Assembly (NCBI GenBank): GCA_011884725.1 | Contig: GCA_011884725.1_3919.1 | DNA: 64,000 bases | Source: a phage | Reading direction: 5' to 3' (one strand) | In this document: one piece after another, positions 9,901 to 48,163 of the stretch | Layout of the letters: every line of letters begins with the position of its first letter | Position numbering within the stretch: the first letter of the stretch is position 1 | Program-made: the position numbers and the translations under genes | Notes under the pieces: generated by a model | Databases searched by the model: none | What the model saw: only the letters and a program-made list of their open reading frames with translations | Told to the model about the DNA's origin: nothing

Positions 9901-10196
9901 GTAAAACAATTCGAAGAAAAGGTTTAAAGAACGTTCATGGACTCTATGAGTGGAGAAATGAGGTACGTAACAGAGAAAATGCTTCAGATGTCTACTTCCA
10001 TTCTGATATGATGTCCAGAAAAGGTGGCTCTTACGACTTCACAAGCCAGCCTTGTAGAGAGATTAAGAAGGCCACTAAACGTCTTACAAGAACACAAATA
10101 AGGCAGCTTTCTAAGACATCCTTCTTAGATGAAGATTTTGATATTGATAGCAAGTCTCCAAAGAAAGCCGCTAAGAACACTTATATGTATTGGTGA
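9897..10196 (+). CDS. hypothetical protein
   Basis: ORF track; start overlaps upstream stop. Confidence 0.5.
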   Translation: MSKTIRRKGLKNVHGLYEWRNEVRNRENASDVYFHSDMMSRKGGSYDFTSQPCREIKKATKRLTRTQIRQLSKTSFLDEDFDIDSKSPKKAAKNTYMYW

Positions 10197-38512: not shown

Positions 38513-38676
38513 AGATAATCCTCTTGTCTTCTGTAATTTTGAAAGAACAGGTACAGACCAATTTCAGAGGATGAATAGTAGATTAACTCTACCCTTTTTG
38601 ATTCCTTACAGTGATTGGTATTCTTACCTTTCTTCGGTTTATTTGATTTTCTCATTAAGTCTCCTTTGTAGAACAA
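38494..38676 (-). CDS. hypothetical small basic protein
   Basis: ORF track; first gene of the leftward block. Confidence 0.35.
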   Translation of the reverse strand: MFYKGDLMRKSNKPKKGKNTNHCKESKRVELIYYSSSEIGLYLFFQNYRRQEDYLCVVPN

Positions 38677-38904
38677 GGCAGACCTACAGCTTTAACTAAG
38701 ATGGTACAGTAATCCATACAACAAGTCAAGAACTATTGCAAGTTAAAAAAGTTGTTGACAAAGTACTTGACAAGGTGTAGGCTTATAAATACTTAGAAGA
38801 TAACTTAAAAGGTTCCTCTAAAAAGGCTATTTAAACAGATATCTTTCTGGATATCTATCTTTTATCTTAAAAGCCTTTTAAGAGGTCTTATAAGAGGCAT
38901 ACCA

Positions 38905-39276
38905 ATGAAAAACAGAACAAACAAAGGCCAGTTTAAAAAAGGCCAGTCTGGAAACCCATCTGGAAGACCGAAAGGCTCACGTAACAAAAGTTCACTCGTA
39001 AAAGCTCAACTGACCATTGATAATTCTGCTGAGTTTGCTGCAAAGTTGTTTGAAGCGATTGTTACAAGGGACGCTGCTAAGCTTGCAGAGTTCGGGTTAA
39101 ACACAGACGATGTAACCATCAAGAGCATGATTGAAGTCGGTAAAACCATCATGACTCACTCAGCAGGTGAGATGAAAGCAATTGCAGCAGACACTAAGAA
39201 GACCCCTGATAACGGTGGTCAGTCTCAGACAGATAACAAACCAACGTTCTCTGCTGTTGCAACCCTCAAAAAATAA
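38905..39276 (+). CDS. hypothetical protein with N-terminal GNPSGRPKG motif
   Basis: ORF track; AGAGG upstream; basic Gly/Pro-rich N-terminus. Confidence 0.5.
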   Translation: MKNRTNKGQFKKGQSGNPSGRPKGSRNKSSLVKAQLTIDNSAEFAAKLFEAIVTRDAAKLAEFGLNTDDVTIKSMIEVGKTIMTHSAGEMKAIAADTKKTPDNGGQSQTDNKPTFSAVATLKK

Positions 39277-39288
39277 TTTTAAAAGGTG

Positions 39289-39318
39289 TTGACAGACTCT
39301 ACAAAGTTGCTCTAAAGT
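39289..39318 (+). promoter_or_regulatory. sigma70-like promoter TTGACA-18-TAAAGT flanked by perfect 9 bp inverted repeat TGACAGACT / AGTCTGTCA
   Basis: Direct read upstream of the vWA gene; inverted-repeat arms at 39290-39298 and 39316-39324. Confidence 0.5.
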
Positions 39319-39357
39319 CTGTCACATCAAACAACAAATGAGAGAAGAGAGTAAAAT

Positions 39358-40773
39358 ATGAGCGAATTATTTAAACATGCGCACCTTCATGCAGGTCGAA
39401 CTGAAAATGGTGCTGTAAACCATACTTCATCAATGTCTGCTCTTGTAGACTTTTACAAAGCTGCTGGTTCAAGCCGTAGCAATGTAGAAATCTTACCAGA
39501 CCTGTTCTACAAAGCTTTGCGTGAGGATGTTGATGTTGCAGTTCGTATTTTACTGCATATGCGAGATGTACGAGAAGGTATGGGTGAGCGTAAAGCCTTC
39601 AGAACTGTTTTACTTCAAGCGATTGAAGACAAAGTTTTAGAGCCTACGCAGGTTCTTCGCATTATGGATAAGATTGCAGAACTTGGTCGTTTTGATGACT
39701 TCAAAATCTTTGTAGGTACTCGTTTCGAGACAGATGCCTTCAAGCATTTAGAAGCAGCATTACTAGACCCTGCAACAGCAGGTTTGGCAGCTAAGTGGTT
39801 ACCACGAGTCAAACCACGTCATAAGCAGTTTGTAAAACGTTTCTGCAAGTTTGCCAACTTGAGCGAGAAAGAGTACCGCACACTGTTGTCTGCACTATCT
39901 GATACAGTTGAGCAAAAAATCTCTGCTAATGAGTTTGGTAAGATTGACTACAGTAAGATTCCTTCACTTGCTGCTGCACGCTACCAAAAACTGTTTAACC
40001 GTAAAGATGGAGAGCGATACAAAGCTTACATCGAGTCCTTATCAAAGGGTGAGGCTAAGATTAATGCTGGTGCTGTTTACCCATACGATGTGATTAAATC
40101 TGTCAAGCATGGTAATGCAGATGTTGCTAATGAGCAGTGGAAAGCACTACCAAACTGGATGGCAGAAGGTGAAAACATCTTGTGTATGTCTGATGTATCA
40201 AGTTCAATGTCTTGGGTGAATTTTGGCTCCATTACTGCTCTGGATATTGGTGTATCACTTGCCTTGTATGTAGCAGAACGCAATACAGGCTGCTTTAAGA
40301 ATGAGTTGATGGTTTATTCAACAAACCCTCACTTCATCGAACTGAGTGGTGATTTACGAAACCGTCATCGTCAGGTGATGCGACACGTTGAATATGGCTC
40401 AACTAACTTACAAGCAGCTTTTGACCGCATTCTTGAAACAGGTAAAAGAAACAACTTGACTCAGAAAGATATGCCAAGTAAGCTTATCATCTTCTCCGAT
40501 ATGGAGTTCAATCAGGTTGATGGAGCTAACGGTCGTACAAACTTTGAAGCAATTCAGAGTAAGTACAAAAAAGCTGGATATGAGATGCCACAACTGGTAT
40601 TCTGGTACTTAGCAAACCGTAATGGTACTTGCGAAGTGTCTGTTAAGGATAACGGTGTAGCAATGGTATCTGGTTTCTCTCCAGCCACTTTAAAAGCTCT
40701 GCTTGGTGGTGAGAAGTTTGACCCAATCAGCGTAATGCTCAAAGCAGTAATGATTGACCGTTATATCTGGTAA
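39358..40773 (+). CDS. vWA-domain protein with MIDAS motif
   Basis: 471 aa; C-terminal half has DxSxS (CMSDVSSSM) and a later IIFSDMEF acidic motif typical of von Willebrand A domains; helical N-terminal half. Confidence 0.55.
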   Translation: MSELFKHAHLHAGRTENGAVNHTSSMSALVDFYKAAGSSRSNVEILPDLFYKALREDVDVAVRILLHMRDVREGMGERKAFRTVLLQAIEDKVLEPTQVLRIMDKIAELGRFDDFKIFVGTRFETDAFKHLEAALLDPATAGLAAKWLPRVKPRHKQFVKRFCKFANLSEKEYRTLLSALSDTVEQKISANEFGKIDYSKIPSLAAARYQKLFNRKDGERYKAYIESLSKGEAKINAGAVYPYDVIKSVKHGNADVANEQWKALPNWMAEGENILCMSDVSSSMSWVNFGSITALDIGVSLALYVAERNTGCFKNELMVYSTNPHFIELSGDLRNRHRQVMRHVEYGSTNLQAAFDRILETGKRNNLTQKDMPSKLIIFSDMEFNQVDGANGRTNFEAIQSKYKKAGYEMPQLVFWYLANRNGTCEVSVKDNGVAMVSGFSPATLKALLGGEKFDPISVMLKAVMIDRYIW

Positions 40774-40791
40774 AAAGTTTTAAAAAGGGTA

Positions 40792-40820
40792 TTGACAATG
40801 TGTTTAATACCCTTTAATAT
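40792..40820 (+). promoter_or_regulatory. strong sigma70-like promoter TTGACA-17-TAATAT overlapping 9 bp inverted repeat AAGGGTATT / AATACCCTT
   Basis: Direct read, about 120 bp upstream of the first tRNA; inverted-repeat arms 40785-40793 and 40806-40814. Confidence 0.6.
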
Positions 40821-40882
40821 GTTCTACATAGAAACGAAATGAGAGCTTTTCTAAGATACTGAAAAATATTTTAAAAAAGTTC

Positions 40883-40917
40883 TTGACAACCACTAAAAAA
40901 TAATGTTAAAGTGGTTA
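40883..40917 (+). promoter_or_regulatory. promoter-like TTGACA with inverted repeat AACCACT / AGTGGTT; -10 weak
   Basis: Direct read; same A-rich-GT-TTGACA upstream pattern as the other promoters. Confidence 0.3.
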
Positions 40918-40938
40918 CATAGAGTTTGAAAAGTTTAT

Positions 40939-41015
40939 CTCTGTTTAGCTCAGCTTGGTAGAGCGTTCCGTTTGGGGCGGTAAGGCCGGAGGTTCAAGTC
41001 CTCCAACAGAGACCA
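40939..41015 (+). tRNA. tRNA-Pro (anticodon TGG)
   Basis: Acceptor CTCTGTT/AACAGAG, C1:G72, T-arm GGAGG-TTCAAGT-CCTCC, anticodon loop TTTGGGG, A73, encoded CCA. Confidence 0.75.
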
Positions 41016-41022
41016 AATTAAT

Positions 41023-41100
41023 GTTCCAGTAGACAAAATGGTAAAGTCACCACTCTTTCAAAGTGGATATCTGAGGGTTCAAATCCCTTCTGGAACGCCA
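41023..41100 (+). tRNA. tRNA-Glu (anticodon TTC)
   Basis: Acceptor GTTCCAG/CTGGAAC, anticodon stem CCACT/AGTGG loop CTTTCAA, T-loop TTCAAAT, G73, CCA. Confidence 0.75.
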
Positions 41101-41191
41101 GTTTTGACAGAAGACCAATTACAGCAAACTTAATCTTATTCATCTGAAGGTAAATCGGACAAAGAAGAGATTTGGTCTGGTCATTAAGAAT

Positions 41192-41268
41192 TGCGGGTAT
41201 AGAGAAAGGGCGTCTCACATGTCTCATTAGCATGGTATCGGCAGGTTCGACTCCTGCACCCGCCTCCA
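41192..41268 (+). tRNA. tRNA with CAT anticodon (Met or Ile2 type), atypical 5' region
   Basis: T-arm GCAGG-TTCGACT-CCTGC, 3' acceptor ACCCGCC, anticodon stem CATGT/GCATG loop CTCATTA; 5' acceptor has a 1:72 mismatch or an extra nt before the D-stem. Confidence 0.5.
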
Positions 41269-41352
41269 AATTTACAGAAGACCGTTTACAGCAAAATTGA
41301 ATGAAATTTTTAGCGGAAAAATTGAAAGATACGGTCTGGTAATACTAAACAT

Positions 41353-41426
41353 GGTTAGGAAGCACATAAGGTATGTGCGGTCGCCTGTTAAGCGAATGGC
41401 ACAGGGTTCGAATCCCTGACTAACCG
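41353..41426 (+). tRNA. tRNA-Asn (anticodon GTT)
   Basis: Acceptor GGTTAGG/ACTAACC, anticodon loop CTGTTAA, T-arm CAGGG-TTCGAAT-CCCTG, G73, no encoded CCA. Confidence 0.7.
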
Positions 41427-41438
41427 CAAAATTGAAAT

Positions 41439-41526
41439 GTGTCGTTATCCCGTAGATGGTAGCGGTGGGGACTGTAAATCCCTTGTCATTGAGACTCGGT
41501 AGGTTCGACTCCTACACGGCACACCA
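41439..41526 (+). tRNA. tRNA-Tyr (anticodon GTA), long variable arm
   Basis: 88 nt; acceptor GTGTCGT/ACGGCAC, anticodon loop CTGTAAA, T-arm GTAGG-TTCGACT-CCTAC, A73, CCA. Confidence 0.75.
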
Positions 41527-41531
41527 ATAAA

Positions 41532-41608
41532 GGCTATGTAGTTTAACTGGAGAAAATACTCCCCTGTCACGGGAGATGATGTGAGTTCAAGTCTCATCGT
41601 AGCCGCCA
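41532..41608 (+). tRNA. tRNA-Asp (anticodon GTC)
   Basis: Acceptor GGCTATG/CGTAGCC, anticodon stem CTCCC/GGGAG loop CTGTCAC, T-loop TTCAAGT, G73, CCA. Confidence 0.8.
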
Positions 41609-41837
41609 AATTATAATAAGTATTTCAAAATGATGTTTTGAGAGGGCTATTTAGCCCCTCCCTTAAAGAGTTCTTACGAGTATTCTTTAAAGGAGCAGAA
41701 GACCAAATACAGCAAGAATGTATGATATTTTCAAGCCAATCCAATTTTGAAAAAATTTAAAACTTGGTCTGGCTCAACAAATTTACAGAAGACCGTTTAC
41801 AGCAAAACTTAAACAATCTATTTCTCGGTAAAGAAAA

Positions 41838-41892
41838 GGCGAAGGTTCGATTCCTTCACTCGGCAGATGTCGAGTTGGTGTAATGGTAGCAC
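41838..41892 (+). pseudogene. tRNA remnant: 3'-half-like T-arm segment followed by 5'-half-like acceptor/D-arm segment, no intact cloverleaf
   Basis: GAAGG-TTCGATT-CCTTC-ACTCGGCA then GTCGAGTTGGTGTAATGGTAGCAC; no complementary acceptor partner found in correct order. Confidence 0.4.
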
Positions 41893-42065
41893 TTAAGATG
41901 ATAAACAACGGTCTGGTAATTATCTTTGTAGATAAGTTATTAAGCTTACCTGTGAGTATGCGACCACAAAGGGTGAAAGGGTAAATTCTAGATTTAAACC
42001 CAAAAAGGCACATCGCTACAGACCTTAAGCAAGTCTGGGTAGCTTATCTACAAAGATAATTTAAT

Positions 42066-42141
42066 GGAAGTGTAGCAGAATGGTGATGCGGCAGACTTTT
42101 AATCTGACAGGCGATGGGTTCGAATCCCTCCACTTCTACCA
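42066..42141 (+). tRNA. tRNA-Lys (anticodon TTT)
   Basis: Acceptor GGAAGTG/CACTTCT, anticodon loop CTTTTAA, T-loop TTCGAAT, A73, CCA; weak T-stem shared with the CTT Lys tRNA. Confidence 0.65.
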
Positions 42142-42145
42142 ATAT

Positions 42146-42222
42146 GGTTCAGTCGCAGATAAGGTAATGCAAGGGTCTCATAAGCCCTATGAATGTGGGT
42201 TCGATTCCCATCTGAACCTCCA
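42146..42222 (+). tRNA. tRNA-Met (anticodon CAT)
   Basis: Acceptor GGTTCAG/CTGAACC, anticodon stem AGGGT/GCCCT loop CTCATAA, T-arm GTGGG-TTCGATT-CCCAT, CCA. Confidence 0.75.
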
Positions 42223-42223
42223 A

Positions 42224-42299
42224 GCTGGTATAGTTAAGAAGGTTATAACACTCCCCTGATAAGGGAACATCGGTGGTTCGATTCCACCTACCAGTACCA
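42224..42299 (+). tRNA. tRNA-Ile (anticodon GAT)
   Basis: Acceptor GCTGGTA/TACCAGT, anticodon loop CTGATAA, T-arm GGTGG-TTCGATT-CCACC, A73, CCA. Confidence 0.7.
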
Positions 42300-42314
42300 A
42301 TTTCAATAAAGTTG

Positions 42315-42343
42315 TTGACATTGAGATGTGACTACTTTATAGT
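42315..42343 (+). promoter_or_regulatory. strong sigma70-like promoter TTGACA-17-TATAGT inside the tRNA cluster
   Basis: Direct read; followed by about 200 bp without ORF or tRNA before tRNA-Arg. Confidence 0.55.
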
Positions 42344-42545
42344 AACCTTAGTTTTCGTTGCGTAGCGTCTATTTTGCAAATTTAAAATAAATGCAAACGA
42401 CAATGTTTTTCTGGCAGTAGCTTGATAGGCTAAACACCAGTGAGGTCTTCCAATCCCTCATCAAAGAATTTGGCGTACTCGCCCACGGTATGATTAATAA
42501 GGTGGGCATCTTTAAGGGCTTTCTAAGAGAGTCTTTAAAGATAAT

Positions 42546-42622
42546 GCACCCTTAGTTCAATTGGATAGAGCAACGGTCTTCTAAATCGTTAGTTACAGGT
42601 TCGAATCCTGTAGGGTGTACCA
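42546..42622 (+). tRNA. tRNA-Arg (anticodon TCT)
   Basis: Acceptor GCACCCT/AGGGTGT, D-arm GTTCAATTGGATAGAGC, anticodon stem ACGGT/ATCGT loop CTTCTAA, T-loop TTCGAAT, A73, CCA. Confidence 0.8.
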
Positions 42623-42764
42623 AATAGTTAGCAGATTACTTAGACGGCCTTAGCGGGTCTTCCTGTAGGGAGGTGGTCTGTATCTCATGTTTTCCAGAAC
42701 ATGTAAATAATCTGAGAAGAAGCTTGACAGTGTTGAGATAACAGGGTAAGCTTCGAATTATAAT

Positions 42765-42847
42765 ATGGGACGATGTTAAGACTCTAAGGCATGAGCAACG
42801 GCCTCCAAAACCGTTTCAAAGGGGTTCAACTCCTCCGTCCCATGCCA
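42765..42847 (+). tRNA. tRNA-Trp (anticodon CCA) with enlarged D region
   Basis: Perfect acceptor ATGGGAC/GTCCCAT, anticodon stem ACGGC/ACCGT loop CTCCAAA, T-loop TTCAACT, G73, CCA; about 7 extra nt between acceptor and anticodon stem. Confidence 0.55.
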
Positions 42848-42860
42848 AAGTCTTATTAGG

Positions 42861-42948
42861 GGTAGGTAGCGGCTAATGGTAGCCAAACTGTCTTGAAAAC
42901 AGTTGCCACTGTAGAGATACGGTGAGGGTTCGACTCCTTTACTTACCG
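42861..42948 (+). tRNA. tRNA-Ser (anticodon TGA), long variable arm
   Basis: 88 nt; acceptor GGTAGGT/ACTTACC, anticodon stem ACTGT/ACAGT loop CTTGAAA, T-loop TTCGACT, G73. Confidence 0.7.
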
Positions 42949-43104
42949 CCTAATAAGATTTACTCCGTCCATGCTTGTTCGCATTGTCGGTTTATCCCTC
43001 GTGTATTGTCGTACACTGTCAAAGCACCTAGTAGGTGTCACGGAGAAGAGATAATATCAAGCTCTCCAAAGGTTCTAGTCACCGGATTAAACAAGACTAT
43101 GCAA

Positions 43105-43124
43105 AGACCTATTTAGGTCTTTTT
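43105..43124 (+). terminator. terminator-like hairpin AGACCT-ATTT-AGGTCT + TTTT inside tRNA cluster
   Basis: Direct read. Confidence 0.45.
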
Positions 43125-43204
43125 AGAGGGCTTCTAAGGTTATTAGTCGCTTGTTGTGGAACCTTGTTGCTTAGGTTCTTAGAAGTTCTCTAAAAAGATT
43201 TAAT

Positions 43205-43282
43205 GGGAGATTGACGGTAATTGGTAAACCTACCATCCTTAGAAGTTGGTGTTTGAGGGTTCGAATCCCTTGTCTCCTACCA
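43205..43282 (+). tRNA. tRNA with Leu-type anticodon TAG but short variable arm
   Basis: Acceptor GGGAGAT/GTCTCCT (two G-U pairs), D-loop AATTGGTAAA, anticodon loop CTTAGAA, T-arm GAGGG-TTCGAAT-CCCTT, A73, CCA. Confidence 0.5.
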
Positions 43283-43289
43283 AATTAAT

Positions 43290-43365
43290 GCAGGTGTAGC
43301 AAAATGGTTATGCGGCTGACTCTTAATCAGTAAGACGATGGGTTCAATTCCCTCCACCTGTACCA
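43290..43365 (+). tRNA. tRNA-Lys (anticodon CTT)
   Basis: Acceptor GCAGGTG/CACCTGT, anticodon stem GCTGA/TCAGT loop CTCTTAA, T-loop TTCAATT, A73, CCA. Confidence 0.65.
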
Positions 43366-43371
43366 AACATT

Positions 43372-43447
43372 GGGGATGTAGTTTACATGGTTAAAACATA
43401 AGTTTTGCAAACTTAAGTACAGGGTTCAATTCCCTGCTTCTCCACCA
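43372..43447 (+). tRNA. tRNA-Ala (anticodon TGC)
   Basis: G3:U70 pair in acceptor, anticodon stem TAAGT/ACTTA loop TTTGCAA, T-arm CAGGG-TTCAATT-CCCTG, A73, CCA. Confidence 0.7.
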
Positions 43448-43453
43448 ATTAGT

Positions 43454-43528
43454 GCATCCATAGTTTAAACGGGAAAATTACAGTCTTCCAAACTGAGGTT
43501 GAGGGTTCGATTCCCTCTGGATGCTCCA
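43454..43528 (+). tRNA. tRNA-Gly (anticodon TCC)
   Basis: Perfect acceptor GCATCCA/TGGATGC, anticodon loop CTTCCAA, T-arm GAGGG-TTCGATT-CCCTC, U73, CCA. Confidence 0.8.
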
Positions 43529-43534
43529 AACAAT

Positions 43535-43611
43535 GCTGCTTTCGTATAATTGGCTATTACACATCCCTTGTAAGGATGGAAATGCAGGTTCGAGTCCTGT
43601 GAGCAGCACCA
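43535..43611 (+). tRNA. tRNA-Thr (anticodon TGT)
   Basis: Acceptor GCTGCTT/GAGCAGC, anticodon stem CATCC/GGATG loop CTTGTAA, T-loop TTCGAGT, A73, CCA. Confidence 0.8.
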
Positions 43612-43707
43612 ATTCAGAGGTCAAGTGAAAGACCGCTTTGAGTCAACTGAAGACCGTAACAAATACCACGGAGTTGAGTTAGCGGCACAACTTCAGACCT
43701 CTTTCAT

Positions 43708-43782
43708 ACTCGCTTAGTTTATATGGTAAAACATCACCCTTACAAGATGAAGAAAAAGGTTCAAGTCCTTTAGTGAGTACCA
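43708..43782 (+). tRNA. tRNA-Val (anticodon TAC)
   Basis: Acceptor ACTCGCT/AGTGAGT, anticodon loop CTTACAA, T-arm AAAGG-TTCAAGT-CCTTT, A73, CCA. Confidence 0.65.
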
Positions 43783-43783
43783 T

Positions 43784-43861
43784 GTTCCAGTATCCCAATT
43801 GGCAGAGGATGCAAGCTCAAACCTTGTATTAGTGACGGTTCGAATCCGTCTTGGAACACCA
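43784..43861 (+). tRNA. tRNA with Leu-type anticodon CAA but short variable arm
   Basis: Acceptor GTTCCAG/TTGGAAC, D-loop AATTGGCAGAGGA, anticodon stem GCAAG/CTTGT loop CTCAAAC, T-arm GACGG-TTCGAAT-CCGTC, A73, CCA. Confidence 0.55.
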
Positions 43862-43866
43862 ATTTT

Positions 43867-43942
43867 GCAGGATTAGTTCAAATGGAAAGAGCAACAGTCT
43901 ACGAAGCTGTTAATAGGGGTTCGAATCCCTTATCCTGCGCCA
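43867..43942 (+). tRNA. tRNA-Arg (anticodon ACG)
   Basis: Perfect acceptor GCAGGAT/ATCCTGC, anticodon stem ACAGT/GCTGT loop CTACGAA, T-loop TTCGAAT, G73, CCA. Confidence 0.8.
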
Positions 43943-43959
43943 GATAAAAAGGTGATACT

Positions 43960-44202
43960 ATGCAAACATTAACAGTAGTTGAACATGAAAACTGTGAGAG
44001 TATTGAGTTTGTCAGGGTCATTGGTGTTGAACACCACATTTTCTTAAAAGTGGGATACTTATGTGACCCCGCTAGAGTAGAAAGATTTATACGTGATTGT
44101 TTTGGTGGTAGACATCTGAAGAGTGTTATTTTTGAGACAGTTTTACCAGAAGGTTTAGAAACGAATAATAACATTTACCTCCTTACGAGGATTAGACAAT
44201 GA
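43960..44202 (+). CDS. hypothetical protein (inside tRNA cluster)
   Basis: ORF track; AAAGGTGA upstream. Confidence 0.5.
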   Translation: MQTLTVVEHENCESIEFVRVIGVEHHIFLKVGYLCDPARVERFIRDCFGGRHLKSVIFETVLPEGLETNNNIYLLTRIRQ

Positions 44203-44756
44203 GATACTTAAAGTATGCTTCATGGATTTTCTTAGCTTTGTTAGAGCCATTTGCAGCAATCTTAGCAGTTATCTTAGCACCTTTTGTAGTTCCATTCTAC
44301 AGTGAGAAGAAAGGACACTTACCTTTCGGGTTCAGATGGATGGAGACATATGACAACCCAATTGATGGTGATGAAGGTCACGTTAAAAGATGGGCTAATA
44401 TTAGATGGATTGGTAAACTAGGTGTCTACATGCAAAGAGTCGGATGGCTCTGGAGAAACAAAGCTTATAACTTCTCTTACCATGTATTAGGAAGAGATGT
44501 AAGAGATGTTACTAAGTGGAAAGGTAATATCAACGTAAGTTCTAACCCTGAAGATAATCAGACTGGTTATCTCCTAATGTGGAACAGTAATGCTTGGGGA
44601 TTATTCGCTTTTATCCCATCAATTAAAGTCTTCGGTAAACAGTTTTACTGGAGAATTTATGTTGGATGGAAACTTAAAAGTGTTGTCCCAGAAGAAAGAG
44701 CATTCTCAAGGGAAAGAGTTATGTTGGCATTCTTTATTCATCCACTGAGAAAGTAA
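44199..44756 (+). CDS. hypothetical membrane protein (inside tRNA cluster)
   Basis: ORF track; N-terminal hydrophobic segment WIFLALLEPFAAILAVILAPFVVPF; Trp-rich. Confidence 0.5.
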   Translation: MRYLKYASWIFLALLEPFAAILAVILAPFVVPFYSEKKGHLPFGFRWMETYDNPIDGDEGHVKRWANIRWIGKLGVYMQRVGWLWRNKAYNFSYHVLGRDVRDVTKWKGNINVSSNPEDNQTGYLLMWNSNAWGLFAFIPSIKVFGKQFYWRIYVGWKLKSVVPEERAFSRERVMLAFFIHPLRK

Positions 44757-44764
44757 AGATTTAA

Positions 44765-44840
44765 AGGGGATTAGTTTACAAGGTTAAAACCTCGGTCTTT
44801 GAAATCGAAGAAGTTGGTTCAATTCCAACATCCCCCGCCA
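44765..44840 (+). tRNA. tRNA-Gln (anticodon TTG)
   Basis: Anticodon stem TCGGT/ATCGA loop CTTTGAA, T-arm GTTGG-TTCAATT-CCAAC, unpaired 1:72 and G73, CCA. Confidence 0.7.
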
Positions 44841-44842
44841 AT

Positions 44843-44921
44843 GCTCCATTACTCCAATTGGCAGAGAGGCCAGACTTAAAATCTGTGTTATGTATCGGTT
44901 CGAATCCGATATGGAGTACCA
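44843..44921 (+). tRNA. tRNA with Leu-type anticodon TAA but short variable arm
   Basis: Acceptor GCTCCAT/ATGGAGT, D-loop AATTGGCAGAGAG (paralogous to the CAA tRNA), anticodon loop CTTAAAA, T-arm ATCGG-TTCGAAT-CCGAT, A73, CCA. Confidence 0.55.
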
Positions 44922-44926
44922 AATTT

Positions 44927-45002
44927 AGCGGTATAGCATAACTGGCAATGCAGCAGTCTCTGAAGCTGTCCTATTAAGGTTCAAATCCTTATGCCGCTGC
45001 CA
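44927..45002 (+). tRNA. tRNA-Gln (anticodon CTG)
   Basis: Acceptor AGCGGTA/TGCCGCT, anticodon stem GCAGT/GCTGT loop CTCTGAA, T-arm TAAGG-TTCAAAT-CCTTA, G73, CCA. Confidence 0.7.
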
Positions 45003-45033
45003 CTTCTAAGGATTCTTACGAGAGTCCTTAAAT

Positions 45034-45109
45034 GTGGCCTTATCATAAATGGTAATGACCCATGCTGTGAACATGGTCTATACGGGTTCAAATCCCGTAG
45101 GTCACCCCA
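45034..45109 (+). tRNA. tRNA-His (anticodon GTG)
   Basis: Acceptor GTGGCCT/AGGTCAC, perfect anticodon stem CCATG/CATGG loop CTGTGAA, T-loop TTCAAAT, C73, CCA. Confidence 0.8.
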
Positions 45110-45114
45110 ATTTA

Positions 45115-45191
45115 TAGTCCAAGTAGCTTATATGGTTAAAGCGCGTGTCTGAAAAACATGAGAAGAGGGTTCAAATCCCACTGGACTACCA
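45115..45191 (+). tRNA. tRNA-Phe (anticodon GAA)
   Basis: Acceptor TAGTCCA/TGGACTA, anticodon stem CGTGT/ACATG loop CTGAAAA, T-loop TTCAAAT; exact 3' end ambiguous by 2 nt. Confidence 0.65.
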
Positions 45192-45207
45192 ATTTCAAAG
45201 GTGCTTA

Positions 45208-45942
45208 ATGAAAGAGATGACAGAACAAGGTAAGGAGATTTTCAATCTCTTAAAAACCGGTAAAGGGTTTTCTAACCCCCTTATTACTGGTGCAGCAGTT
45301 CTCGGTGGAACCGTAGCTGCCTCTACATCACTTGTAAGCTCTATTAGCTCTGTATCAGACCCTACAGTAAAGGATAAGCTTGTTGCTGCTGGACTTACAA
45401 CAGTTCTGCTTAACAGCTTTACCACGAGTCTGACAAGCACTACATCAACTACCAAAACACTAACAGATTACGGTCAAAAGTCCATTGATGAGTTTTCATC
45501 ACGTATGCAGGTAGCAAAAGGTTACTCTAATGTTATGGGTGCAGCAGGTGAACAAGTTGGCTGTACACCATTTAGTGGTATTATGGGTGTTGCTACAGAG
45601 TATGGTCAAAAAACTATTGATACGATTAACAGTGTACTAGATAGTGTTAATGGTGTGTTAAGTGACTTACAAGATGCTATTGACAAAGGTCTTGATACTA
45701 TTTCTGATTTAGCTGAGCAAGCTGTTAGTAAGATTAATGAAGGTATTTCAAAAATTACAGCTTATGCAGATGAAGTTGTGCAGATGATTGAAGAAGAAGC
45801 TGCTCTTATTGCAGAGTACCTTAAAACGAATATCAATGGGTTCTTAGCAGGTATCTTACCAGACTGGTTTGATGATGCTTGTAAAACTGGTGTAATTGAC
45901 ACTATTGCAACACCAGAAATGAAGAACGCATTACAGAAATAA
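45208..45942 (+). CDS. hypothetical Ser/Thr-rich protein
   Basis: Start set to ATG 45208 (track ORF start 45145 lies inside the tRNA-Phe gene); stop 45940-45942 sits 2 nt before a tRNA. Confidence 0.45.
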   Translation: MKEMTEQGKEIFNLLKTGKGFSNPLITGAAVLGGTVAASTSLVSSISSVSDPTVKDKLVAAGLTTVLLNSFTTSLTSTTSTTKTLTDYGQKSIDEFSSRMQVAKGYSNVMGAAGEQVGCTPFSGIMGVATEYGQKTIDTINSVLDSVNGVLSDLQDAIDKGLDTISDLAEQAVSKINEGISKITAYADEVVQMIEEEAALIAEYLKTNINGFLAGILPDWFDDACKTGVIDTIATPEMKNALQK

Positions 45943-45944
45943 AT

Positions 45945-46037
45945 GGAAGATTAACCCTAAAAGGTAAGGGAGCAGTTTGCTAAACTGCCAGTAGCTGAGA
46001 AATCGGTGTACCAGTTCAAGTCTGGTATCTTCCTCCA
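45945..46037 (+). tRNA. tRNA-Ser (anticodon GCT), long variable arm
   Basis: 93 nt; perfect acceptor GGAAGAT/ATCTTCC, perfect anticodon stem GCAGT/ACTGC loop TTGCTAA, T-arm ACCAG-TTCAAGT-CTGGT, CCA. Confidence 0.7.
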
Positions 46038-46041
46038 ATTT

Positions 46042-46117
46042 GAATCCGTGACAGAAACGGCTATGTGCCTGTCTGCAAAACAGGTTTATAAGGGTTCGAG
46101 TCCCTTCGGATTCTCCA
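46042..46117 (+). tRNA. tRNA-Cys (anticodon GCA)
   Basis: Perfect acceptor GAATCCG/CGGATTC, perfect anticodon stem CCTGT/ACAGG loop CTGCAAA, T-arm AAGGG-TTCGAGT-CCCTT, U73, CCA. Confidence 0.8.
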
Positions 46118-46339
46118 AGTTATTTTACTCTCTCTCAATTAAAATAATAATAATGCCCTGCTATAAGTATTCTTCCTTTCGCTACCGAAGAGTATTTTTA
46201 GACAGGGCTTTTTTACAGAGTTATACTTTATAGGAAGACTTATACAGTATGTCTCTGACGTACATTGTGGTTTCTCCTTGACGGTCTCTGTGCCGTCTTT
46301 TTTAAGGGGAAACATGATTAACTATTTGGAGAAAACATA

Positions 46340-46540
46340 ATGAGCGAGACCGTTTATAAAGAACTTTATGAAGCTAATAAAAAGCTAGAATTTATGCAGA
46401 ATACTATCATGGCAATTGCAGACAGATTGTCTGTAGCAACAGGTATTGATATTAAAGAAGCATCTATGGATGCACTTCTTGATGCTGTTGATGCAAAGTT
46501 CGAAGTTAAGAAAGAAGAGACTGCTACAGACTCTGAATAA
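46340..46540 (+). CDS. hypothetical small acidic protein upstream of terminase
   Basis: ORF track; GGAGAA upstream. Confidence 0.45.
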   Translation: MSETVYKELYEANKKLEFMQNTIMAIADRLSVATGIDIKEASMDALLDAVDAKFEVKKEETATDSE

Positions 46541-46561
46541 TTCTATTTGCGGAGGTGCTTA

Positions 46562-48163
46562 ATGGACTTAAATGCTGTTAAGCAGAAGCGAGTGGAAGAT
46601 GTTAGGAAAGTCCTAGCTGGAGAGTTGGGGCTTTCTGATGAAGTAAAAGAAATTATTAAATCATTCGGTAAAGACCCCTCTAAATTCCTTCCAACTCAAA
46701 TTCTGACTTTATTAAGATACACACCAGACCAAGTTCGCCTTATCTTTAAATTGATGACTGATAAGAATTATGTAGCCCCTCAGCCGGGTTCTCAAGAGGT
46801 CTTTTTAAATACTAATGCTGACTTGGTTCTCTATGGTGGTGCTGCGGGTGCTGGTAAGACTGCTGCATTGTTAATGGACTCTTTAAGGTTTATTGATGAC
46901 CCTAATTATAATGCTGTATATTTCCGTCGAAATACAACACAGCTACAAGGTGGTTTGTGGCCTGCTGCAAAGAAACTATTTGGTAAGTTTGGTGGGGTTC
47001 CTCACGAGCAGAAGATGACTATCACATTCCCTTCTGGGGCAACTATCAAGTTTACCTATCTAGAGCTTGAAAAGCACGCTGAAGGTCATCAGGGTATTGA
47101 GTATTCAGCTATTTACTTTGACGAAGGTACTCACTTCTCTGCTTCACAGATTTCATACCTACAGACTCGTCTACGTTCTGGGGCTGAAGGTGATTCATAC
47201 ATGAAGATTTCTATGAACCCAGACAGAGACCACTTTATTTACGATTGGGTAGAACCATTCTTAGATGAAGAAGGTTACCCAGACCCTGAAAAGTGTGGTC
47301 GTATTCGTTGGTATGTAATGAATGATGGTGTTATGGTTTCTGATTGGGAGAGAGACAAGATTCTTGAAATGTTTCCTCTTGAGATTCCTCAAACATATAC
47401 ATTCATCTCTGGTACGATTGATGATAACCCAATTCTTGACTTCTTAGAACCTAAATATCGTGGTAAGTTGGAAAACAACACCCCTGTAAACGTTGCAAGA
47501 CTTCGTTTCGGTAACTGGAAGGCTCGTGCAGAAGGTTCAAACTATTGGCAAAGACAATGGTGTGAAATTGTTGATTCACTCCCAGAAGATGTATTCGATG
47601 TCAGAGCATGGGACTTAGCAGCAACTTTACCATCTGAGATTAACCCTAACCCAGACTGGACAGCAGGTGTTAAGATGGGTAAATCTAAAAAAGACGGTTG
47701 CTATTATATCATTGATGTAGTAAGATTTAGAGATAGACCCTCTGGAGTCGAAACACAAATTAATTTGACTGCTGAAAGTGACGGTAAGCGAACTGGTATT
47801 TTTATCCCTCAAGACCCAGGCGCTGCTGGTAAATCCTACGCAACATCCCTCATCAGGAAACTTGCCGAGAAAGGTTATCGAGCAAGAGCTAAACCAACAA
47901 ATAAAGACAAAGTTACCCGATTTGCGGGGTTTTCTGCTGCTTCTGAAGCTGGACTTGTAAAAGTCTTGAGAGGTAGTTGGAACGAAGCTTACTTTCAAGA
48001 ACTTGAAGGTTTTTGTGGTGATGGTAAAACTAAAGATGACCAAGTGGATGCTACCAGTGATGCTTTCAACAGTCTTAACGAAGTTAAATTATTCAAGCCA
48101 CCATCAATGGGTGCTCACACAGACTTAGTGAGAGGAAACCCATATGAGGGGCTTAGACGTTGA
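46562..48163 (+). CDS. terL: terminase large subunit
   Basis: ATG 46562 with GGAGG upstream (track start is a TTG); Walker A YGGAAGAGKT; size and position before the portal gene. Confidence 0.8.
   Translation: MDLNAVKQKRVEDVRKVLAGELGLSDEVKEIIKSFGKDPSKFLPTQILTLLRYTPDQVRLIFKLMTDKNYVAPQPGSQEVFLNTNADLVLYGGAAGAGKTAALLMDSLRFIDDPNYNAVYFRRNTTQLQGGLWPAAKKLFGKFGGVPHEQKMTITFPSGATIKFTYLELEKHAEGHQGIEYSAIYFDEGTHFSASQISYLQTRLRSGAEGDSYMKISMNPDRDHFIYDWVEPFLDEEGYPDPEKCGRIRWYVMNDGVMVSDWERDKILEMFPLEIPQTYTFISGTIDDNPILDFLEPKYRGKLENNTPVNVARLRFGNWKARAEGSNYWQRQWCEIVDSLPEDVFDVRAWDLAATLPSEINPNPDWTAGVKMGKSKKDGCYYIIDVVRFRDRPSGVETQINLTAESDGKRTGIFIPQDPGAAGKSYATSLIRKLAEKGYRARAKPTNKDKVTRFAGFSAASEAGLVKVLRGSWNEAYFQELEGFCGDGKTKDDQVDATSDAFNSLNEVKLFKPPSMGAHTDLVRGNPYEGLRR

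Follow-up and report, generated by a model that had tools for sequence, protein, structure and literature searches.

The window analysed here, 64,000 nucleotides (nt) of phage DNA (NCBI GenBank assembly GCA_011884725.1, contig GCA_011884725.1_3919.1), comes from a Felixounavirus of the Felix O1/wV8 type, and the region under study matches 253 phage records in megablast. On its plus strand, at positions 39358 to 40773, lies an open reading frame (ORF) with an ATG start codon, which encodes a protein of 471 amino acids (aa); the coordinates, strand, length and quoted peptides given in an earlier note on this DNA agree exactly with the ORF list. As that note had described, a tRNA cluster follows: 26 tRNA genes, all on the plus strand (positions 40939 to 46117; ARAGORN and Rfam), begin 166 nt downstream of the ORF. 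Embedded in this cluster, about 333-1146 nt downstream of the gene and on the same strand, are four structured RNA modules, which we named U1 to U4. Based on the ORF, Pfam, PHROG, AlphaFold, fold matches and synteny, the gene product is a Ro60-like protein of the DUF2828/DUF7788 family (PHROG 850) and the orthologue of gp130 of Escherichia phage Bas63, and the RNA modules, apparently undescribed, are probably its Y-RNA-like partner.

The gene is real, since full-length homologues exist in more than 700 phage records (710 by tblastn) and among thousands of metagenomic proteins. The hosts include Escherichia, Salmonella, Mycobacterium, Vibrio, Listeria, Staphylococcus, Campylobacter, Enterococcus, Bacillus and others, and the homologue of Escherichia phage garuso is 100% identical to the protein of the window. 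The labels of the homologues vary: hypothetical protein, vWFA protein, DUF2828 protein, RNA-binding protein and, in SEA-PHAGES genomes, "Ro-like RNA binding protein". PHROG 850 ("RNA-binding protein") matches residues 1-471 (2.7e-184), and the Pfam families DUF2828 and DUF7788 match residues 172-264 (9.9e-30) and 274-455 (1.8e-43), respectively; an NCBIfam search with the 471-aa protein gave nothing useful.

The earlier note had seen a helical N-terminal half and a C-terminal von Willebrand factor A (vWA) domain in this protein. The AlphaFold model, built on a 42-sequence alignment (predicted local distance difference test 87.3, predicted template modelling score 0.87), bears this out, with predicted helices at residues 28-263 followed by an alpha/beta vWA fold. 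The all-helical domain (approximately residues 1-265, positions 39358 to 40152) is the predicted structural equivalent of the TROVE/HEAT-repeat ring of Ro60. The vWA domain (approximately residues 270-455, positions 40165 to 40722), which is supported by the match to DUF7788, by invariant residues and by hhalign, harbours a full metal ion-dependent adhesion site (MIDAS). The DxSxS peptide CMSDVSSSM, found within ENILCMSDVSSSMSW, corresponds to D279-x-S281-x-S283 (codons at 40192-40206); T349 is encoded at 40402-40404, and D381 (40498-40500) is part of the peptide IIFSDMEF within KLIIFSDMEFNQ. The MIDAS motif noticed earlier is thus complete, because all five residues are invariant in the 42 aligned sequences, which span 41-99% identity.

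The comparison with TROVE/Ro60, TerY and other vWA families that had been suggested in the earlier note gave a split result. On the structural side, the predicted structure matches solved Ro60 over 400 residues including the helical half, while vWA-only families score far below Ro60; the best structural match is not a vWA-only protein (TerY, BatA/B, MoxR partners and midasin were considered). A profile-profile comparison by hhalign with a narrow, actinobacterial profile of 30 TROVE-family proteins gave a probability of 83.9% and an E-value of 7.8e-6 over 193 columns. The aligned region comprises the last helices and the whole vWA domain, with the N-terminal ring outside the alignment. It pairs DVSGSM, GSTN/GGTD, SDMEF/TDNET and VSGFSP/VSGFDS, and the MIDAS residues are aligned with those of the TROVE family. 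Three protein-level results speak against an assignment to Ro60, and with it against the reading of the locus developed below: no TROVE (PF05731), vWA_Ro60 (PF25045) or generic vWA model of Pfam matches the 471-aa protein at E<=1; Ro60 was not found among PDB chain sequences, neither by phmmer with the single protein nor by hmmsearch with the 42-sequence profile; and what ties the N-terminal ring to TROVE/Ro60 is solely its predicted structure. Gp233 of mycobacteriophage McGee, used as a control, is matched by TROVE (9e-50) and vWA_Ro60 (4e-54) in Pfam, and therefore canonical Ro60 and the 471-aa protein belong to different sequence families for both domains.

The lack of a TROVE match at the sequence level could be taken to mean that the gene encodes an ordinary vWA protein of the TerY, BatA or MoxR-partner type, which does not act on RNA and whose likeness to Ro60 is a modelling artefact. 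This explanation is hardly tenable in view of the confident model, the extension of the Ro60 match into the helical half, the far lower scores of vWA-only families, and the hhalign alignment, which reaches past generic vWA motifs to the C-terminal VSGF. The modelled kinship with Ro60 becomes visible through fold comparison and profile-profile alignment only. Nevertheless the protein very likely has the Ro60 fold, which supports the Ro60/Rsr-like hypothesis of the earlier note, and we conclude that it is a divergent Ro60-type protein outside Pfam TROVE as this family is now defined.

The RNA modules downstream of the gene are marked by a 19-nt motif, AGAAGACC-NNN-TACAGCAA, which occurs with zero mismatches at positions 41109, 41276, 41697 and 41787 (span 41109-41805) and has no fifth copy in the 64 kb. 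Each copy is followed, 40-110 nt on, by a complementary arm ending in GGUCU-G. The arms differ in a compensatory manner: CAA:UUG is shared by the inner helices of U1 and U3, those of U2 and U4 have CGU:ACG, and the outer helix occurs in the variants GAC:GUC, UUAC:GUAA and GAGC:GCUC. All four share a terminal stem and an invariant motif, C-A/C-G-C-A-A, while their inserts vary.

All four modules are on the plus strand. The short form U1 (41106..41182) fills the spacer between tRNA-Glu and tRNA-Met; its outer helix is formed by 41106-08/41180-82 and its inner helix by 41112-18/41172-78, with the internal loop AGA/G, and the motif UUACAGCAA is located at 41119-27. U2 (41272..41342), also a short form, lies between tRNA-Met and tRNA-Asn and has the outer helix 41272-75/41339-42, the inner helix 41279-85/41331-37 and the motif UUACAGCAA at 41286-94. 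U3 and U4 are both located between tRNA-Asp and tRNA-Lys. U3 (41693..41775; outer helix 41693-96/41772-75, inner helix 41700-06/41764-70) is a third short form and contains the motif AUACAGCAA at 41707-15. With the covariance model described below, in which they are seed members, U1, U2 and U3 score 43.8, 42.8 and 35.6 bits, respectively. U4 (41783..41919) is a long form resembling YrlA, with the outer helix 41783-86/41916-19, the inner helix 41790-97/41907-14 and the motif UUACAGCAA at 41797-805; the short-form model matches its 5' part only (E 0.22). RNAfold predicts the two-part stem in U1, U2 and U4, and it folds U4 into a four-way junction. The repeated 5' element of the modules (TTGACA/TTTACA...TTACAGCAA) was also considered as a promoter and rejected, as its hexamers are spaced by 19-20 nt, it is absent from the list of the promoter scan, and its 3' arm covaries.

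We then compared 80 viral loci carrying homologues of the gene (numbered with the prefix L), 75 of which show 39-48% protein identity and are referred to as divergent loci. A descriptor composed of a 7-nt arm, the motif W-N-N-C-A/C-G-C-A, 20-170 nt, a perfectly complementary arm and a G matched 103 times on the gene strand, as against 4 matches on the opposite strand and 7-11 in dinucleotide shuffles; a first version had been too loose (123 versus 55 versus 41) and was tightened. Within 500 nt of the gene we found 46 of the 78 descriptor matches in the divergent loci. A covariance model, R1, was built from 30 short forms. In the window it detects the cluster at 41.1-41.9 kb and nothing significant elsewhere. 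In the divergent loci, 64 of 64 matches at E<=0.1 are on the gene strand (37 of them outside the seed), and so are 73 of 73 matches in 80 loci from bacterial and archaeal assemblies, none of which was in the model; the latter matches are distributed over approximately 51 loci and mostly lie just upstream of the gene. In named distant phages with 27-35% protein identity, all 14 matches at E<0.01 are on the gene strand and right beside the gene. For example, the module starts 16 nt past the stop codon in Staphylococcus phage S-CoN_Ph16, Listeria phage LP-083-2 has three copies upstream of the gene, and Mycobacterium phage Kingsolomon has two modules in an unannotated gap of 382 nt downstream of it; significant matches also adjoin the gene in Enterococcus phage VRE9_1, Bacillus phage FADO and Campylobacter phage CJLB-7. 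R1 gave zero matches in 80 viral loci with canonical TROVE Ro60 (971 kb).

Both methods combined, a module is present in 52 of the 75 divergent loci, with the nearest one at a median distance of 63.5 nt from the gene, and 2-7 copies occur in many loci. By eye, the variants CUGCAA, CGGCAA and CCGCAA are seen beside the gene in most of the other 23 loci, and therefore the core of the motif is C-N-G-C-A-A. The consensus reads WWWW, A-G-R-W-U-N-N, W-U-W-C-A/C-G-C-A-A-A-Y, an A-rich part, N-N-A-W-Y-C-U and G; the C, G, C and A of the motif and the unpaired 3' G do not vary, and the stem base has a G-C pair that is 98% conserved. In the alignment 98.8% of the stem cells are paired, compared to 65% in shuffles and 29-47% with slid partners, and compensatory changes were found at seven of the seven stem pairs. 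No Rfam family covers the module in the window or in 11 divergent loci, and in these 11 loci no YrlA or Y RNA reached the gathering score. The Rfam model of YrlA (RF02553) did detect the YrlA of phage McGee (36 bits, E 2e-5), which served as a control. At least 571 relatives of the protein, which may be encoded by prophages, mis-binned phage contigs or true cellular genes, were found in bacterial and archaeal genome assemblies (loci L092-L171 were sampled), among them the isolates Clostridiales bacterium CCNA10, Dysosmobacter segnis and Novimethylophilus kurashikiensis as well as a Pacearchaeota metagenome-assembled genome, with the module upstream.

The position of the modules in the window, where they fill spacers between tRNAs, raises the possibility that they serve phage tRNA islands in general, as cassettes for processing or stabilisation, and that their proximity to the gene is incidental. 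Two modules elsewhere even enclose genuine, non-permuted tRNAs (L033 5730-5837 and L080 8520-8615; Rfam tRNA 52.9 and 55.2 bits), and therefore the module can act as a leader/trailer clamp around a real tRNA. We nevertheless regard this explanation as very improbable. Within 6 kb of the gene, tRNAs were found in 33 of the 80 viral loci, always on the strand of the gene, and none in the other 47, most of which still have a module beside the gene. Moreover, the module is missing from the rest of the 26-tRNA cluster, and from the 971 kb around TROVE genes, even though the phages concerned are often rich in tRNAs.

Alternatively, the modules could be cis-acting leader or trailer elements of the transcript of the gene, with a role in its stability, processing or autoregulation. 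The short distances reported above are what such elements would lead one to expect: the nearest module is usually less than 100 nt from the start or stop codon, and in addition to the Staphylococcus phage, locus L007 provides an extreme case with a module 17 nt ahead of the gene start. The modules in the window, however, are far downstream, past two promoter-like sites and among tRNAs, and it is difficult to see cis elements in the multiple copies of many loci or in inserts which are tRNA-like domains or even genuine tRNAs. Since bacterial Y RNAs likewise adjoin rsr on the same strand, proximity is also compatible with RNAs acting as partners of the protein, and we consider the cis-acting role improbable.

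The inserts differ strongly between the modules. In short forms, which have 55-65 nt, the insert is a small hairpin or an A-rich loop, and U1 to U3 have no tRNA-like domain. In U4 the insert contains a V-like hairpin (approximately 41817-39), a T arm (41841-57; GAAGG-UUCGAUU-CCUUC), an acceptor-like hairpin (41858-75), which is closed and has 7 bp (ACUCGGC-AGAU-GUCGAGU), and, after U-G, a D arm (41877-93) with the loop AAUGGUA; these four elements form the junction predicted by RNAfold. In this insert the tRNA is circularly permuted, and the same tRNA-like order of T arm, closed acceptor-like stem-loop and D arm defines the architecture of YrlA (PMC4201824). The window and 13 loci together yielded 17 long forms with a permuted tRNA domain, 15 of which have an intact T stem. 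In 14 of the 17, the T arm is immediately followed by a perfect 7-bp hairpin, and at least 6 of 7 pairs are formed in 16, compared to a mean of 3.3 and a maximum of 8 in the shuffled control, while the hairpin sequences are different in all 17. Next come a linker of U and a purine and then a D arm, in many cases with the canonical sequence AGCUCAG..GGUAGAGC. MAFFT and RNAalifold recovered the T stem only, because loop lengths vary, and were replaced by a positional parse with shuffled controls. Thus, the idea of Y-RNA-like partners next to the gene, expressed in the earlier note, is supported by four structured modules among the tRNAs of the window and by a family that is linked to the gene elsewhere.

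In 7 of the 17 long forms the loop of the acceptor-like hairpin opens with N-CCA (ACCA, GCCA or CCCA), as if the discriminator base and the CCA end were encoded, which is suggestive only; U4 has AGAU at this position. The hairpins concerned are L033 7479-7499, L042 7580-7600, L069 7860-7882 and 10544-10563, L078 3717-3740, and L080 7884-7904 and 8785-8807. If RNase P or another enzyme cut within this loop, the product would be a tRNA-like molecule in two pieces, with a mature CCA end. Other large inserts are shared between loci (L024, L025, L035, L043, L057, L061, L068, L071 and L075, downstream of the gene; also L045, L046, L047, L063 and L067). One group has GGGUUAGAAGUAAAUGCCCC near the 3' arm and another has a domain of approximately 130 nt with repeated GGUGUAAAGG. 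These inserts probably represent additional effector domains within one and the same family of RNAs. By analogy, the combination of a constant docking stem with a variable effector domain would correspond to the logic of Y RNAs.

It is likely that the stem-CNGCAA RNAs are ligands of the protein, although physical binding is our inference, and we consider a ribonucleoprotein of the protein with the U1-U4 RNAs a rather probable candidate for the best explanation of the locus as a whole. According to this model, a putative helical ring closed by the vWA/MIDAS domain would bind small RNAs encoded just downstream on the same strand. The docking site would be the base of the stem, with the single-stranded CAGCAA by the 5' arm, the A-rich tract before the 3' arm and the unpaired G after it, in analogy to the Ro-binding stem of Y RNAs. 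The effector would be the variable insert, a small hairpin in U1 to U3 and the permuted tRNA-like domain in U4, which could attract substrates of host RNA enzymes or imitate them, much as Ro60 is tethered to PNPase by Y RNAs. By the same analogy, an interaction of the complex with host RNA enzymes in the manner of Ro60-Y RNA-PNPase is plausible. Because the modules fill inter-tRNA spacers, we infer that they would be freed from a polycistronic tRNA precursor by RNase P and 3' processing.

A possible biological output is known from Bas63 (Escherichia phage JohannRWettstein, Felixounavirus, MZ501086), which was studied by PhageMaP in a preprint of 2024 (PMC11482910). According to its authors, gp130 is structurally similar to Ro60 and encoded directly upstream of tRNAs, and they speculated that some of the annotated Bas63 tRNAs are possibly Y RNAs (PMC11482910). 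Deletion of gp130 sensitises Bas63 to Ppl, a defence system consisting of an ATPase and a PHP phosphoesterase, and gp130 alone, on a plasmid or inserted in T7, rescues T7 on a Ppl strain; the plating of T7 with gp130 even exceeds that of the no-defence control (PMC11482910). The protein of the window and bas63_0130 are identical at 461 of 471 positions (98%) without gaps, and the upstream gene and the downstream tRNA order are the same in Bas63. Because of this identity and synteny, the gene of the window is the gp130 orthologue. The output of the proposed ribonucleoprotein may therefore include counter-defence, in which Ppl is neutralised as by Bas63 gp130, and robust growth. While the RNAs were not identified in the Bas63 study, the candidates described here are located in the spacers and not among the annotated tRNAs. 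Two of the Bas63 modules are overlain by minus-strand coding sequences (CDS) for a "hypothetical protein", bas63_0137 and bas63_0138 (L082 37749-38023), for which the main text of the PhageMaP preprint contains no data. Small "hypothetical protein" CDS also cover modules at L087 4471-4560 (CoNPh16_CDS0153) and L089 2823-2939 (CDS0134), and all of them are probably spurious gene calls.

Besides the protein-level results mentioned above, several findings count against a ribonucleoprotein of this kind. As gp130 alone rescues T7, the modules of the phage itself are not required for the anti-Ppl effect, which may use host RNAs or none. At the RNA level, the minimum-energy fold of U3 lacks the terminal stem, which is supported by comparison with the other units, and the single-sequence folding z-scores of U1 to U4 are modest (-0.65 to -2.9). 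Rfam revealed no YrlA or Y_RNA in the window, neither at the gathering score nor at E<=10 over positions 38600-47000, and the weak matches obtained there (transfer-messenger RNA (tmRNA), selenocysteine tRNA (tRNA-Sec), microRNA-like) are below threshold. The motif itself deviates from that of Y RNAs, GNCGAA(N)G/CGAA (or GGUCCGA), in being CNGCAA with an invariant 3' G. Approximately one third of the loci have no match to R1. The covariation figures lean towards structure, since the alignment was fitted to the stem and the descriptor demanded pairing, and it is therefore the strand bias and the negative control that carry independent weight. Finally, the "RNA-binding protein" labels of the DUF2828/DUF7788 family are annotation transfers.

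The T7 experiment could suggest that the protein is a direct inhibitor, with a vWA/MIDAS face that blocks Ppl or another host protein, a fold that is a leftover, and RNAs that are not its ligands. This would leave unexplained why a covarying RNA accompanies the gene on the same strand in at least four bacterial phyla, in loci without tRNAs too, and why the module is absent from canonical TROVE loci. Furthermore, canonical Ro60 keeps a MIDAS vWA domain and binds RNA, so that both roles are compatible. We therefore judge the pure inhibitor unlikely, with a small chance of being correct. Like the cis-acting and the cassette explanations, it is partial, because the strand-specific, phylum-spanning linkage of RNA and gene and its absence from TROVE loci remain unexplained. 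In counteracting Ppl, the protein may use host RNAs, cap RNA 3' ends against the PHP phosphoesterase, or bind Ppl via its MIDAS face. If the RNAs are dispensable for the anti-Ppl effect, as the T7 rescue suggests, the family would combine two separable activities.

Known Ro60-Y RNA systems show both parallels and differences. In common with Ro60 (Rsr) and YrlA of bacteria and mycobacteriophages, the system described here has the predicted two-domain fold with a MIDAS, an RNA within a few kb on the same strand, a terminal stem with a conserved motif, albeit of another sequence, beside its 5' strand and, in U4, a permuted tRNA-like domain; in the survey of Chen et al. (2014), YrlA was found within 4 kb of the gene on the same strand, and only TROVE-annotated genomes were searched (PMC4201824). 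In contrast to Rsr, both domains belong to other Pfam families and the protein is approximately 70-80 residues shorter, and in contrast to YrlA, many of the partners are minimal stem-loops of 55-65 nt without a tRNA-like domain. The structure of phiRo60 from Thermus phage phiLo was solved in 2025 (PDB 9KOP, 9L5Y), and this protein binds two upstream RNAs with the CGAA motif, Yrl1 and Yrl2, as well as host PNPase, whose activity the complex dampens (PMC12135203). PhiRo60 differs from the present system in that it is TROVE-annotated, has RNAs with CGAA, shares 14-16% identity with the present protein and has no link to Ppl. Listeria phage LP-083-2 encodes an RtcB-like RNA ligase on the strand of the homologue, 1.3 kb further downstream (L086 5815-7026), which echoes the bacterial rsr-Y RNA-rtcBA operons. 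In phage Kingsolomon, a Band7-like membrane protein and a tRNA-Tyr are encoded upstream of the homologue (L085 731-1663), and the gene neighbourhood of a T4-like homologue was uninformative.

The assignment of the protein as Ro60-like is already known from database annotations and from the Bas63 preprint (PMC11482910). We found the RNA family, its motif, its breadth and the permuted tRNA mimicry outside TROVE genomes neither in Rfam 15 nor in the literature that could be searched; as the coverage of the latter is incomplete, an earlier description is possible. Ro60-Y RNA particles are conserved from bacteria to humans; what they do is understood only in part, and there has been hardly any work on them in phages. 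The whole would amount to a second, larger Ro60-Y RNA-like lineage with an RNA signature of its own. Tentatively, and with somewhat less than even confidence, we propose that DUF2828/DUF7788 proteins, together with stem-CNGCAA RNAs, make up an extensive and hitherto undescribed branch of Ro60-Y RNA systems in tailed phages of many bacterial phyla and in some cellular assemblies, in which the stem base would dock the protein and the inserts could be decoys or adapters capturing host RNA enzymes or defences like Ppl.

With 710 phage records, including Listeria, Staphylococcus, Enterococcus, Campylobacter, Vibrio and Felix-O1 groups, the DUF2828/DUF7788 family is far commoner in phages than canonical TROVE Ro60, and some of these phage groups are used in phage therapy and biocontrol. 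With a conserved candidate RNA partner, which is easy to mutate, the label "Ro60-like by structure" becomes a ribonucleoprotein hypothesis that can be tested. Further, R1 can serve as a search model to annotate hundreds of intergenic RNAs that at present lack an annotation or carry a wrong one; several of them are listed as small hypothetical proteins. The results also show that Y-like RNAs imitate permuted tRNAs well outside the genomes that encode TROVE.

The tRNA cluster has additional features. Regarding the promoters which the earlier note had placed ahead of it, two sigma-70-like consensus matches are indeed present on the plus strand (40792-40820, TTGACA-17-TAATAT; 40883-40912, TTGACA-18-TAAAGT; 10/12 each in the consensus scan), but such sites are about as frequent in shuffled sequence, and they are consensus matches only. 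A 12-bp hairpin, AAAGGGUAUUGACA...UAAUACCCUUU, at 40784-40815 (plus strand) starts 11 nt past the ORF stop and overlaps the -35 hexamer of the first site; it may be a terminator, or may couple the gene to the RNA cluster by promoter occlusion. The best promoter consensus match of the cluster (TTGACA-17-TATAGT, 11/12) is at 42315-42343 on the plus strand and is followed by approximately 200 nt without a tRNA. The stretch 42315-42545 gave sub-threshold tmRNA-like matches of 29 and 16 bits, and in Bas63 it corresponds to the minus-strand CDS bas63_0142.

Several further spacers are structured. Between U4 and tRNA-Lys, at 41918-42062 (plus strand), a 24-bp terminal stem, UUAUCUUUGUAGAUAAG.../...CUUAUCUACAAAGAUAA, surrounds four small hairpins; its minimum free energy is -48.3 kcal/mol (z -5.95; 0 of 200 shuffles as stable), and it has no Rfam match and no CAGCAA motif. 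Unannotated plus-strand spacers that are more stable than shuffles were also found at 42632-42760 (z -2.9), at 43113-43203 (z -3.4; a 26-bp hairpin) and at 41609-41692 (z -3.2; three hairpins). Last, a tRNA-like gene at 42765-42847 (plus strand), which is not called by ARAGORN and scores only 23 bits with Rfam tRNA-Sec, has a 7-bp acceptor stem (AUGGGAC/GUCCCAU), a discriminator G, an encoded CCA and a normal T arm. Its "anticodon" loop, CCUCCAAAA, comprises 9 nt on a 5-bp stem (42797-42815), and the CCUCC in it presumably resembles the anti-Shine-Dalgarno sequence. The same 9-nt loop is kept at approximately 9990-10070 of locus L006, from a phage whose Ro-like protein is 48% identical.

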